The position numbers were made by a program, and so were the translations under genes. Positions 49,535 through 55,633 of a stretch of DNA of 64,000 nt are shown here, in pieces. The first letter of the stretch is position 1, and every line of letters begins with the position of its first letter. Below the pieces are notes generated by a model. It had not been told where the DNA came from. It saw only the letters and a list, made by a program, of their open reading frames with translations, and searched no databases. The DNA is from Escherichia coli. GTDB taxonomy: Bacteria > Pseudomonadota > Gammaproteobacteria > Enterobacterales > Enterobacteriaceae. The DNA lies in assembly GCF_003334405.1 (NCBI RefSeq), contig NZ_QOWM01000003.1. One strand, written 5' to 3'.

Positions 49535-49567
49535 CAGATGTAAAATTATTTTGTCCCTTTAATTATA

Positions 49568-49604
49568 AAGCAGAGTTATGTTTAAGCTCTGCTTTATTTA
49601 TTTG
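49568..49604 (+). terminator. rho-independent terminator after paaY
   Basis: AAAGCAGAG...CTCTGCTTT stem followed by ATTTATTT. Confidence 0.65.
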
Positions 49605-52800: not shown

Positions 52801-55633
52801 TACTCTGGTAGGGATGGCTGTTTATGAGCATGGTACTGCTATCAACGACCAGACGGGTGTTATCAATATCAATGTTGGTACTGGTCAGGCGTTTTATAAC
52901 GATGGCACAGGAACAATTGTTAACTATGGTACAATCTGCACTTTCGGCGTGTGCCAATCGGGGAATGAGTACAATAATACAGATGATTTCACCTCACTGA
53001 TCTATACCGGTGGCGATACGATTACACGAAGCGGAGAAACTGTAACGCTAAATAAATCTGCTGCTGTGACTGATAAGCTGGCTGGGAATGTTGTTAATAG
53101 CGGAACGCTTTCCGGTGATCAAATTACGGTATCAAGCGGTCTTCTGGAAAATACCAGCGGTGGCATCATCAATAACTTAGTAAAACTTGACAAGGGTGCC
53201 GTCATTAAAAATGCCGGGGTGATGACGAATAACGTCGATGTTAGCGGTGGAATCCTCAATAATGCCGGAGAAATGACTGCGCAAATTACCATGAATGCTG
53301 GTGCTGATAGTTCGTTAGTGAACAACACCGGAACCATCAATAAAATCGTGCAGAACGCGGGGGTATTCAATAATAGTGGCAGTGTAACAGGGCGGATGAT
53401 GTCGGCTGGCGGGGTCTTTAATAATCAAACTGACGGGGCGATTATGAGAGGTGCTGCGCTGACAGGTACTGCAGTGGCAAATAACGAAGGAACCTGGAAC
53501 CTCGGAAGTAGTAGTGAGGGTAACAACACCGGGATGCTGGAAGTTAATAATAATTCAGCTTTCAATAACCGCGGCGAGTTTATTCTTGATAACGACAAGA
53601 ATGCTGTGCACATCAACCAGTCCGGTACGCTTTATAATACCGGTCACATGAACATCAGTAATTCTTCCCACAACGGAGCCGTTAATATGTGGGGCGGAAA
53701 TGGTCGTTTTATCAATGACGGAACGATTGATGTTTCTGCGAAGTCACTGGTAGTCAGCGCTAATAATGCCGGCGATCAGAATGCCTTCTTCTGGAACCAG
53801 GATAACGGGGTCATCAACTTCGATCACGACAGCGCCAGTGCCGTGAAAGTCACCCACAGCAACTTTATTGCCCAGAATGACGGCATCATGAACATCAGCG
53901 GCACCGGTGCTGTGGCTATGGAAGGTGATAAGAACGCGCAGCTGGTTAACAATGGCACCATCAACCTCGGTACCGCAGGCACTACTGACACGGGTATGAT
54001 CGGTATGCAACTCGATGCCAACGCCACGGCGGATGCGGTAATCGAAAACAACGGCACCATCAATATCTTCGCCAATGACTCGTTTGCATTTAGCGTACTG
54101 GGTACAGTAGGTCATGTGGTTAACAACGGCACGGTGGTGATTGCCGATGGGGTTACGGGTTCTGGACTGATCAAGCAGGGCGACAGCATCAATGTTGAAG
54201 GTATGAACGGTAACAACGGTAATAGCAGCGAAGTGCATTATGGCGACTATACGTTGCCGGATGTGCCGAAGCCCAATACGGTTAGTGTAACGTCGGGAAG
54301 TGATGAGGCTGGTGGCAGCATGAACAACCTCAACGGCTATGTCGTCGGTACCAACGTTAACGGCAGCGCCGGGAAGCTGAAGGTTAACAATGCCAGCATG
54401 AACGGCGTGGAGATTAACACGGGCTTTACCGCTGGTACGGCAGACACCACTGTGAGTTTTGATAACGTAGTGGAAGGTAGCAACCTGACCGACGCTGACG
54501 CCATCACCTCAACGTCCGTGGTATGGACTGCCAAAGGCAGCACCGATGCCAGCGGTAACGTTGACGTCACCATGAGCAAAAATGCCTACACCGATGTGGC
54601 AACAGATGCCTCGGTGAATGACATCGCGAAAGCACTGGATGCGGGTTACACCAACAACGAACTGTTTACCAGCCTGAACGTCGGCACGACTGCTGAACTG
54701 AACAGTGCTCTGAAACAGGTCAGCGGTAGCCAGGCGACCACGGTATTCCGCGAAGCGCGCGTGTTAAGCAACCGCTTTAGTATGCTGGCAGATGCCGCGC
54801 CGAAAGTGGGTAACGGTCTGGCGTTCAACGTTGTCGCGAAAGGCGATCCGCGTGCCGAGTTAGGTAATAATACCGAATACGACATGCTGGCATTGCGTAA
54901 AACTATCGACCTGAGCGAAAGCCAGACGATGAGTCTGGAGTACGGTATCGCTCGTCTCGATGGTGATGGTGCGCAGAAAGCGGGTGATAATGGCGTTACA
55001 GGCGGTTATAGCCAGTTTTTTGGCCTGAAACATCAGATGTCGTTCGATAACGGCATGAACTGGAATAACGCCTTGCGTTACGACGTTCACAACCTTGACA
55101 GCAGCCGCTCGATTGCATTTGGCAACACGAACAAAACGGCTGATACCGACGTGAAACAGCAGTACCTGGAGTTCCGCAGCGAAGGGGTGAAGACTTTCGA
55201 ACCGAGCGAAGGACTGAAGGTTACGCCATATGCGGGTGTAAAACTGCGTCACACACTGGAAGGTGGCTATCAGGAGCGCAATGCCGGAGACTTTAACCTG
55301 AATATGAACAGTGGCAGCGAAACGGCGGTGGACAGCATCGTCGGGCTGAAACTGGACTACGCAGGTAAAGACGGCTGGAGCGCTAGCGCTACGCTGGAAG
55401 GCGGGCCGAACCTGAGCTACGCGAAGAGCCAGCGTACGGCAAGCCTGGCAGGCGCAGGCAGTCAGCACTTTAACGTCGATGACGGTCAGAAGGGCGGCGG
55501 CATCAATAGCCTGACAAGCGTCGGCGTGAAGTACAGCAGCAAAGAAAGTTCGCTGAATCTGGATGCGTACAACTGGAAAGAGGATGGCATCAGCGATAAA
55601 GGCGTGATGCTGAACTTCAAGAAAACGTTCTAA
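49865..55633 (+). CDS. ydbA: AIDA-like autotransporter adhesin, apparently intact
   Basis: 1922-aa single ORF: signal peptide, Asp/His run and Pro-rich linker, repetitive Gly/Asn/Thr-rich passenger, C-terminal beta-barrel ending in Phe. Confidence 0.85.
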   Translation: MQRKTLLSACIALALSGQGWAADITEVETTTGEKKNTNVTCPADPGKLSPEELKRLPSECSPLVEQNLMPWLSTGAAALITALAVVELNDDDDHHHRNNSPLPPTPPDDESDDTPVPPTPGGDEIIPDDPDDTPTPPKPVSFNNDVILDKTEKTLTIRDSVFTYTENADGTISLQDSNGRKATINLWQIDEANNTVALEGVSADGATKWQYNHNGELVITGDNATVNNNGKTTVDGKDSTGTEINGNNGKVIQDGDLDVSGGGHGIDITGDSATVDNKGTMTVTDPESMGIQIDGDKAIVNNEGESTITNGGTGTQINGDDATANNNGKTTVDGKDSTGTEINGNNGKVIQDGDLDVSGGGHGIDITGDSATVDNKGTMTVTDPESIGIQIDGDQAIVNNEGESTITNGGTGTQINGNDATANNSGKTTVDGKDSTGTKIAGNIGIVNLDGSLTVTGGAHGVENIGDNGTVNNKGDIVVSDTGSIGVLINGEGATVSNTGDVNVSNEATGFSITTNSGKVSLAGSMQVGDFSTGVDLNGNNNSVTLAAKDLKVVGQKATGINVSGDANTVNITGNVLVDKDKTADNAAEYFFDPSVGINVYGSDNNVTLDGKLTVVSDSEVTSRQSNLFDGSAEKTSGLVVIGDGNTVNMNGGLELIGEKNALADGSQVTSLRTGYSYTSVIVVSGESSVYLNGDTTISGEFPLGFAGVIRVQDKALLEIGSGATLTMQDIDSFEHHGTRTPELTYADSGAKIVNKGTVEIQNLGFAFVTGENTTGINSGTISLLQNGKDPAPSPIVLLATNGGSATNAGTITGKVTEQHSVFNKYSTGTSNSFIFNNDVSSITGLVAQSNSTIINTDSGIIDLYGRGSVGMLAIADSTAENQGKITLDSMWVDANDTTAMRDIASNSAIDFGTGVGVGTDSYSGAGKNATAINQLGGVITIYNAGAGMAAYGASNTVINQGTINLEKNGNYDDSLAANTLVGMAVYEHGTAINDQTGVININVGTGQAFYNDGTGTIVNYGTICTFGVCQSGNEYNNTDDFTSLIYTGGDTITRSGETVTLNKSAAVTDKLAGNVVNSGTLSGDQITVSSGLLENTSGGIINNLVKLDKGAVIKNAGVMTNNVDVSGGILNNAGEMTAQITMNAGADSSLVNNTGTINKIVQNAGVFNNSGSVTGRMMSAGGVFNNQTDGAIMRGAALTGTAVANNEGTWNLGSSSEGNNTGMLEVNNNSAFNNRGEFILDNDKNAVHINQSGTLYNTGHMNISNSSHNGAVNMWGGNGRFINDGTIDVSAKSLVVSANNAGDQNAFFWNQDNGVINFDHDSASAVKVTHSNFIAQNDGIMNISGTGAVAMEGDKNAQLVNNGTINLGTAGTTDTGMIGMQLDANATADAVIENNGTINIFANDSFAFSVLGTVGHVVNNGTVVIADGVTGSGLIKQGDSINVEGMNGNNGNSSEVHYGDYTLPDVPKPNTVSVTSGSDEAGGSMNNLNGYVVGTNVNGSAGKLKVNNASMNGVEINTGFTAGTADTTVSFDNVVEGSNLTDADAITSTSVVWTAKGSTDASGNVDVTMSKNAYTDVATDASVNDIAKALDAGYTNNELFTSLNVGTTAELNSALKQVSGSQATTVFREARVLSNRFSMLADAAPKVGNGLAFNVVAKGDPRAELGNNTEYDMLALRKTIDLSESQTMSLEYGIARLDGDGAQKAGDNGVTGGYSQFFGLKHQMSFDNGMNWNNALRYDVHNLDSSRSIAFGNTNKTADTDVKQQYLEFRSEGVKTFEPSEGLKVTPYAGVKLRHTLEGGYQERNAGDFNLNMNSGSETAVDSIVGLKLDYAGKDGWSASATLEGGPNLSYAKSQRTASLAGAGSQHFNVDDGQKGGGINSLTSVGVKYSSKESSLNLDAYNWKEDGISDKGVMLNFKKTF
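50534..51190 (+). repeat. 294-bp tandem repeat (about 2.2 copies) inside ydbA
   Basis: Near-identical 98-aa units starting ATVNNNGKTTVDGKDSTGTEING... at 50534 and 50828, with a partial third copy from 51122. Confidence 0.8.

Follow-up and report, generated by a model that had tools for sequence, protein, structure and literature searches.

An intact ydbA autotransporter allele with a size-variable tandem repeat in Escherichia coli

The ydbA locus of Escherichia coli raises the question of whether an uninterrupted copy of a gene that insertion sequences (IS) break in K-12 encodes a working surface protein, and whether the tandem repeat inside it switches the gene on and off or changes the size of its product. 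The copy considered here lies at positions 49,535–55,633 of a 64,000-nucleotide stretch of contig NZ_QOWM01000003.1 (assembly GCF_003334405.1), which we call the window. We consider it highly probable that 49865..55633 is an intact, chromosomal ydbA allele, situated between paaY and pdxI, and that its product is a classical (type Va) autotransporter belonging to the BigA/YdbA family. The same confidence attaches to our explanation as a whole, which also spans a history of repeat contraction, tuning of protein length, coating of the upstream region by H-NS and a role as an adhesin. The repeat is size-variable, not phase-variable.

The allele of the window and its predicted architecture

The gene is a single frame of 1922 codons, as an earlier note made from the sequence of the window had claimed:

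49865..55633, plus strand: ydbA coding sequence, 1922 amino acids (aa), with an ATG start and no internal stop in the list of open reading frames (ORFs) and the translation

Upstream lie paaX and paaY, and downstream pdxI (ydbC) and ydbD. In a megablast comparison with 5,426 complete E. coli genomes, the full-length match was E. coli O141:H4 strain P13-6 (NZ_CP080223.1), and a base-by-base comparison with this strain gives 2 differences in 6,099 bases and 5 in 18 kb. The ydbA protein is one codon apart from that of P13-6 (WP_001573416.1), position 55188 being T in the window and C in P13-6. With this T, residue 1775, in the barrel region, is Val instead of Ala; relatives have Ala, Ser or Arg at the site (EFRSEG, then A, S or R, then K). 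Some ydbA match is present in 3,155 of the 5,426 genomes, and 982 hold at least 80% of the window allele in one place; many other genomes carry diverged or mosaic ydbA alleles with 77–93% identity.

The Prokaryotic Genome Annotation Pipeline (PGAP) names the product a BigA/YdbA N-terminal beta-barrel domain-containing protein. Many other RefSeq/PGAP records label this autotransporter “EntS/YbdA MFS transporter”, apparently through a mix-up of the names ydbA and ybdA, and the same gene is elsewhere recorded as “pectate lyase-fold domain-containing protein” or “S-layer family protein”.

Outside the repeat array and the N-terminal module, which are treated below, the protein has the following parts:

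49865..49927, plus strand: signal peptide, aa 1–21 (MQRK, TLLSACIALAL and SGQGWA, followed by AD), read from the sequence, its pattern conserved in all aligned relatives
50282..50524, plus strand: BigA_N small beta-barrel, aa 140–220 (Pfam PF25784, E=7.2e-33, model positions 1–80 of 80), with an AlphaFold2 predicted local distance difference test (pLDDT) score of 82–91
51185..54334, plus strand: rest of the beta-helix passenger, aa 441–1490, modelled by AlphaFold2 as beta-helix to about aa 520 in the fragment used
54335..54586, plus strand: BigA_beta sandwich, aa 1491–1574 (Pfam PF25783, E=2.7e-25, model positions 1–84 of 84), with strands in the AlphaFold2 C-terminal model
54740..55630, plus strand: predicted alpha-helical linker (about aa 1626–1644) and 12-stranded barrel (about aa 1670–1920), from Pfam PF03797 and AlphaFold2

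Together, the sequence and the predicted models give a domain order of Sec signal, N-terminal module, BigA_N, right-handed beta-helix, BigA_beta, a predicted helical linker and 12-stranded barrel, which is the standard type Va layout. The Sec signal was recognized by inspection, with the n-region MQRK, the core TLLSACIALAL and a predicted cleavage site at the small-x-small motif GWA/A (aa 19–22), a layout common to 11 of 11 aligned relatives. An AlphaFold2 model of aa 1–560, built on an alignment of 12 family members, places aa 140–520 at pLDDT 90–98 as a small barrel that leads into a regular beta-helix with three strands per rung, and a degenerate G-x-x-x-V/I-x-N-x-G pattern is seen in the passenger translation. 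The model of the last 470 aa (mean pLDDT 66) consists of a beta-sandwich, helices and 12 long strands, with the helix at aa ~1626–1644 placed just ahead of the first barrel strand at a pLDDT of only 56–69. The autotransporter beta-domain PF03797 matches aa 1696–1892 (E=3.5e-18), and the protein ends in VMLNFKKTF, the terminal F of which is invariant in the C-terminal alignment A2. The best Foldseek matches in the PDB are Ag43 and TibA (4kh3, 7kob, 4q1q), although these are weak (E 3e-4 to 2e-3, template modelling scores of 0.1–0.35), and a PDB sequence search with the C-terminal 470 aa returned no match. Against the NCBIfam model NF033178 (auto_BigA), the protein scores 1073.9 bits where the curated cut-off is 3400, and we therefore regard YdbA as a relative of BigA rather than BigA itself.

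The repeat array and its variation among strains

The passenger opens with the array:

50525..51184, plus strand: in-frame 294-bp (98-aa) tandem repeat of 2.2 copies, consisting of units A, B and a partial C*, aa 221–440 (Tandem Repeats Finder)

The 2.2 copies of a 98-aa unit that the earlier note described are recovered by Tandem Repeats Finder with a period of 294, 90% matches and 0 indels; the first and second units share 273 of their 294 bases. The array starts exactly at codon 221, and its unit of 98 codons is in frame. In the AlphaFold2 model, one unit is predicted to form four three-stranded beta-helix rungs of about 24.5 aa each (pLDDT 90–98). A 300-aa antisense ORF (50342–51244, minus strand) overlaps the array and is most likely a by-product of its repetitive, stop-poor composition.

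Array length in complete genomes was derived from hits to a joined query made of 1 kb of left flank and 1 kb of right flank, and 15 E. coli loci were fetched and their units typed. The alleles carry 1.2, 2.2, 3.2, 6.2, 7.2 or 8.2 copies:

1.2 copies: 23CRST029 (L007), ORF of 1824 aa
2.2 copies: the window and P13-6 (L001), LR-29-1 (L014), ORF of 1922 aa
2.2 copies: AHB21 (L015, IS3) and one J53 derivative (L013, IS2 and IS30), ORF interrupted
3.2 copies: NCTC9100 (L002) and IAL7252 (L003), ORF of 2020 aa
3.2 copies: K-12 type (L004, IS2 and IS30) and Sanji (L008, IS3), ORF interrupted
6.2 copies: F5505-C1 (L011), frameshifted
7.2 copies: ST361 (L005), 67-1 (L006) and 08A21CPO005 (L010), ORF of 2412 aa
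8.2 copies: 0H24 (L012), ORF of 2510 aa

The most frequent copy number in this sample is 3.2. Gene lengths are 5475, 5769, 6063, 7239 and 7533 bp, separated from 5769 in each case by whole multiples of 294, and the uninterrupted alleles are all in frame. The earlier note had proposed that the repeat is prone to copy-number change by recombination, and the range from 1.2 to 8.2 copies, together with the chimeric junction units described below, bears this out. It had named a frameshift in the repeat region and an identical repeat number in all strains as findings that would speak against it; the repeat is free of frameshifts, and its number differs between strains.

The same note called the repeats phase-variable-looking. 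That ydbA is a contingency gene switched ON and OFF through its repeat would be in keeping with a long, nearly perfect tandem repeat inside a surface-protein gene and with a copy number that varies from strain to strain. However, the 294-bp unit amounts to 98 codons, the reading frame stays intact across the array in all variants, whether they have 1.2 or 8.2 copies or a number between, and the only frameshifted allele, that of F5505-C1, is broken near its 3' end rather than in the array. The 330-bp spacer upstream of the gene contains no GATC site and thus offers no Dam/OxyR-type switch as in agn43; its inverted repeats are just 10–13 nt long, imperfect and AT-rich, with no recombinase gene adjacent, and its T6/T7 runs are without indels in 11 of the 13 loci compared. 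A scan of the spacer for inverted repeats, taken with the neighbouring genes, found no invertible element upstream of ydbA, and no variable homopolymer was found among the loci compared. ON/OFF switching through the repeat is therefore extremely improbable, and the description as phase-variable does not hold: with an in-frame unit and no upstream switch element, the variation is one of size.

The frameshift in F5505-C1 (NZ_CP024257.1, locus 10145–10450) lies at the 3' end, downstream of the array, and leaves an ORF of 2226 aa and another of 101 aa; it is either a real mutation or a sequencing error.

The units themselves record how the array changes. The common 3.2-copy allele has the structure A-D-E-C*, and the window has A-B-C*. 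Unit B is identical to D at 8 of 8 D/E-informative sites up to position 93 and to E at 12 of 12 from position 217. On sequence grounds, the 2.2-copy form of the window is a derivative of the 3.2-copy A-D-E-C* form. One event between D and E, either unequal homologous recombination or replication slippage, left a chimeric unit and took out exactly 98 codons. Four different junctions are found among the 2.2-copy alleles: AHB21 has a D/E chimera with a later breakpoint than that of the window, the J53 derivative shows a clean loss of D, and LR-29-1 shows a clean loss of E. The differing junctions indicate that contraction has been repeated and independent. The 1.2-copy allele of 23CRST029 carries an A/E chimera (unit P). 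Outside the array, the window and the 3.2-copy NCTC9100 allele differ at 1 of 5,106 bases, from which it follows that the copy change is recent relative to point mutation.

Could the differences in copy number instead be assembly artefacts, the 294-bp repeat having been collapsed or expanded? The assembly of one K-12 derivative, J53-p1-pV-hybrid-1 (NZ_CP068706.1), has 2.2 copies (A-E-C*) where other K-12 records have 3.2, and this form is either a contraction in a laboratory lineage or an assembly collapse. Short-read assemblies also break in the repeat, and many “partial” proteins of 236–382 aa end inside the array. Against such an origin, the alleles differ in unit sequence as well as in number, and the chimeras are clean, with single switch points. 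An identical 7.2-copy protein (WP_201154755.1) occurs in independent complete genomes from different countries (ST361 and 08A21CPO005), and the window shares one 2.2-copy structure with P13-6. We thus find an artefactual origin very hard to credit, and the length differences among ydbA alleles are better taken as genuine recombination products than as annotation noise. The partial YdbA N-terminal fragments that end within the array number in the thousands in the protein database, and for practical purposes the repeat both breaks short-read assemblies and confuses automated naming.

If the predicted fold holds along the array, each unit would add four rungs, or roughly 19 Å at 4.8 Å per rung, and the range of 1.2–8.2 copies would span about 130 Å of stalk. 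Copy number may thereby tune the distance between the cell and the tip of the protein, as well as the surface that the protein exposes. If YdbA is an adhesin, the natural 1.2–8.2 copy series offers a test of stalk length against adhesion or immune recognition.

The AT-rich spacer and the fate of ydbA among strains

Three features lie upstream of the gene:

49535..49864, no strand assigned: paaY-ydbA intergenic spacer, 330 bp, 24.8% GC, the equivalent of a K-12 “promoter island”
49565..49597, plus strand: terminator-like hairpin and T-run immediately past the paaY stop (13-pair stem, followed by TTATTTGAGT), with an 11-nt inverted repeat, I2, that is perfect
49638..49703, minus strand: 21-codon small ORF (WP_010723099.1 in other strains), its ATG start changed to ATA by a C-to-T substitution at 49701

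The earlier note's description of the 330 bp upstream as extremely AT-rich is accurate: at 24.8% GC, compared with 48.2% across the window, the spacer is lower than any other 330-bp segment of the 64 kb. A/T-only runs of 8 bases or more account for 147 of its 330 bases, and TpA has a frequency of 0.142 versus 0.050. The only other low-GC stretch of the window lies at about 13050–14800, with about 30–31% GC in 330-bp windows. The spacer is identical to K-12-type loci at 329 of 330 positions, and the K-12 paaY/ydbA spacer (385 bp) is one of the 78 “promoter islands” of Panyukov and Ozoline (PMC3661553, Table 1), which are AT-rich regions with suppressed transcription (PMC3661553). This island is bound by H-NS in the Kahramanoglou and Oshima chromatin immunoprecipitation (ChIP) data sets and is tied to a predicted foreign gene (PMC3661553, Table 1). 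The note's suggestion of a silencer-type promoter is thus supported by published H-NS binding, in K-12, on a nearly identical spacer. By analogy with K-12, the spacer of the window is probably coated by H-NS, which would leave ydbA largely silent under laboratory conditions. A ChIP-chip study of an rpoZ mutant reported increased RNA polymerase binding at ydbA and a transcript about 7.7-fold higher (PMC5811629); hns-mutant expression data for ydbA were not found in the literature.

The hairpin at 49565–49597 is likely the end of the paa transcript and, because it lies directly 3' of paaY, ydbA is probably transcribed from a promoter of its own within the 270 bp that remain. Transcription of ydbA would then start within the very AT-rich spacer. 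A search of Rfam gave no family match upstream of ydbA, and we rejected a structured 5' untranslated region or attenuator, as the terminator-like hairpin at 49815–49836 near the ribosome-binding site folds no better than shuffled sequences (z = 0.54). As for the small ORF, known in K-12 as ynbG, base 49701 was read directly in P13-6 only, where it is C, versus T in the window; the fetched loci with a full spacer, 13 in all, each carry one or more mismatches relative to the window. Looking up “ynbG” in the literature turned up nothing but papers on a yeast medium.

How often the gene survives was assessed in 30 genomes picked evenly among those with this allele family. The K-12 type of disruption, with IS2 and IS30 inside the gene and two partial pseudogene pieces annotated, agrees with the earlier note's description of K-12 ydbA as an IS-disrupted pseudogene, and this insertion pair is found in 9 of the 30. 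An IS3 insertion after about codon 49 is present in 8 (one with an extra IS1), while one further genome has IS1 with an N-terminal deletion and one is frameshifted. The remaining 11 look uninterrupted, and six of these were confirmed as complete ORFs. The disrupted class is inflated by K-12 laboratory derivatives.

These counts bear on whether ydbA is a decaying, functionless relic, in which the intact frame has simply escaped disruption so far and the repeat varies neutrally. Insertions of IS2 and IS30, IS3 and IS1, along with the frameshift, are common; the region is H-NS-silenced in K-12; and, among phylogroup A genomes, only about 42% were reported to have the gene in full length (PMC4951805). 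On the other side, ORFs of 1824–2510 aa stay open in many unrelated strains, and the same architecture recurs in E. albertii, Citrobacter, [Enterobacter] lignolyticus and Pantoea. The ratio of non-synonymous to synonymous substitution rates (dN/dS), where substitutions suffice to estimate it, is well under 1, at 0.05 over 4,446 nt against the 1.2-copy allele of 23CRST029 and 0.27 against the 7.2-copy allele of ST361. Differences between units are likewise mostly synonymous, with D and E differing at 12 synonymous and 4 non-synonymous codons. A functionless relic is thus an improbable account, if the least improbable of the alternatives to a functional autotransporter gene. The gene is dispensable and often lost, yet its intact copies evolve in the manner of functional proteins. 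In many natural E. coli, then, ydbA, usually dismissed as a K-12 pseudogene, is a full-length gene under purifying selection.

Resemblance to its family makes a surface adhesin or aggregation factor the most likely function of YdbA. Several points weigh against the explanation that we favor. About 19 of the 30 sampled genomes have a disrupted ydbA, and such frequent IS disruption fits weak or conditional selection. The literature searched held no expression, export or adhesion data for any ydbA allele. H-NS occupancy is known from K-12 ChIP data compiled in a secondary paper, not from this strain, and a consensus sigma-70 scan of the spacer gave 3 sites versus 2.7 expected by chance, singling out no promoter. 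Finally, the stalk length of ~19 Å per unit is derived geometrically from a predicted model.

The gene, its family domains, the K-12 disruption and the H-NS-bound spacer are already in databases and papers. What is new here is the allelic series of 1.2–8.2 copies, the chimeric junctions and the predicted four rungs per unit, all modest details such as one would expect of a surface protein with repeats.

The N-terminal module and comparison with known systems

The only part of the locus with potential for novelty is the segment between the signal peptide and BigA_N:

49928..50281, plus strand: N-terminal module, aa 22–139, with Cys41-Pro42, Leu56-Pro57 and Cys60 and a hydrophobic stretch at aa 68–86
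50132–50152, plus strand: DDDDHHH, aa 90–96 (GAC GAT GAT GAT CAT CAT CAT), followed by Arg97
50162–50281, plus strand: Pro/Asp-rich linker, aa 100–139, with 15 Pro and 9 Asp in 40 residues

The earlier note had reported an unusual DDDDHHHH run and a Pro-rich linker. The acidic/His run is present but has three His rather than four (D90–D93, H94–H96), and the linker is as described. Neither is unusual within the BigA/YdbA family, in which both belong to a conserved module. One E. coli allele has DDDDHH in place of DDDDHHH, which indicates, at the sequence level, in-frame slippage of the (CAT)n run.

The module is confined to a handful of Enterobacterales: when aa 1–109 were compared with 1.84 billion cluster representatives, only 43 matched, and the named full-length matches belong to E. 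coli (YdbA alleles and BigA), E. albertii, Citrobacter, [Enterobacter] lignolyticus and Pantoea. In the family alignment (A1), C41, P42, L48, C60 and G75 are invariant, as are S8, I11, A12 and A14 of the signal peptide, with C10 nearly so; an Ala/Gly-rich hydrophobic stretch, an Asp/Asn/His-rich patch and a Pro/Asp spacer are also kept. Across relatives with an overall identity of 35–40%, conservation is much stronger in the signal peptide than in the mature N-terminus, and the nearly invariant Cys10 (49892–49894) of the signal peptide sits within its hydrophobic core. A lipoprotein reading of L-S-A-C10 was rejected, as the Cys follows a hydrophobic run of only about five residues, and the corresponding L-S-L-C or I-S-F-C of relatives does not match a lipobox. 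AlphaFold2 gives no usable structure for aa 1–129 (pLDDT <50 over most of the segment and 57–60 for aa 41–60), and no description of the module was found in the papers searched.

By a simple sum on the Hessa scale, the hydrophobic stretch exceeds the signal-peptide core in hydrophobicity in every member of the family. As a membrane span, aa 68–86 is marginal, with a Hessa sum of about +0.3 over 15 residues and +2.2 over 19, and a true stop-transfer anchor is unlikely because the passenger would then stay in the cytoplasm. The linker in relatives is a tandem array, either (NTPDDGG)n or (VTPPDDGGN)n. Orthologues in E. albertii have lengths that step by 9 aa (1796, 1823, 1832, 1877, 1895, 1904 and 1913), and these protein lengths suggest a second in-frame variable repeat in the family, namely the 27-bp repeat that encodes VTPPDDGGN in the linker.

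One rather improbable idea is that the module acts as a tethering or retention device composed of the Cys10 signal peptide, a Cys41...Cys60 loop, the hydrophobic stretch, the acidic/His patch and the Pro/Asp spacer. Autotransporter passengers emerge C-terminus first, and the N-terminal end, being the last to be exported, could therefore stay in, or re-insert into, the periplasm or outer membrane. The length of the spacer would then set the slack of a doubly anchored passenger, which might be a functional parallel to LapA-type adhesins and their N-terminal retention module. To our knowledge, no such arrangement has been described for type Va autotransporters.

Among the closest known systems is ydbA of K-12, with which the window allele shares the paaY-ydbA-pdxI locus, the allele family and the spacer. 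The difference lies in the array and in the IS insertions: K-12 has 3.2 units (A-D-E-C*) with IS2 and IS30 inserted at about nt 2526 of the gene, whereas the window has 2.2 units and no insertion.

BigA of Salmonella and E. coli (NF033178), named a “surface-exposed virulence protein” or an autotransporter adhesin, has the same succession of signal peptide, Cys-pair/hydrophobic module, Pro/Asp linker, BigA_N, beta-helix, BigA_beta and barrel. The C-terminal 470 aa of YdbA are 81% identical to E. coli BigA P0037, while the N-terminal 109 aa are just 57% identical to BigA. In BigA, (NTPDDGG)n makes up a long linker array, whereas the YdbA linker is short and degenerate, and no 294-bp array like that of YdbA is evident in the first 642 aa aligned of P0037. 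The BigA passenger has been described as AIDA-I-like on a barrel of the NalP-type group (Celik et al. 2012, PMC3419190).

Ag43, AIDA-I and TibA resemble YdbA in being type Va proteins with a right-handed, three-stranded beta-helix passenger. Unlike these proteins, YdbA has BigA_N and BigA_beta and a predicted rung of about 24.5 aa; the AIDA-type repeat is 19 aa. Phase variation of Ag43 via Dam/OxyR depends on GATC sites, which the ydbA spacer lacks. In size variation, parallels include UpaH of uropathogenic E. coli and the alpha C protein of group B streptococci, which contain long in-frame repeats; homologous recombination varies their number between strains and with it the length and antigenicity of the protein. 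YdbA, too, carries an in-frame, strain-variable repeat in a surface protein, although its repeat sequence is unrelated to theirs.

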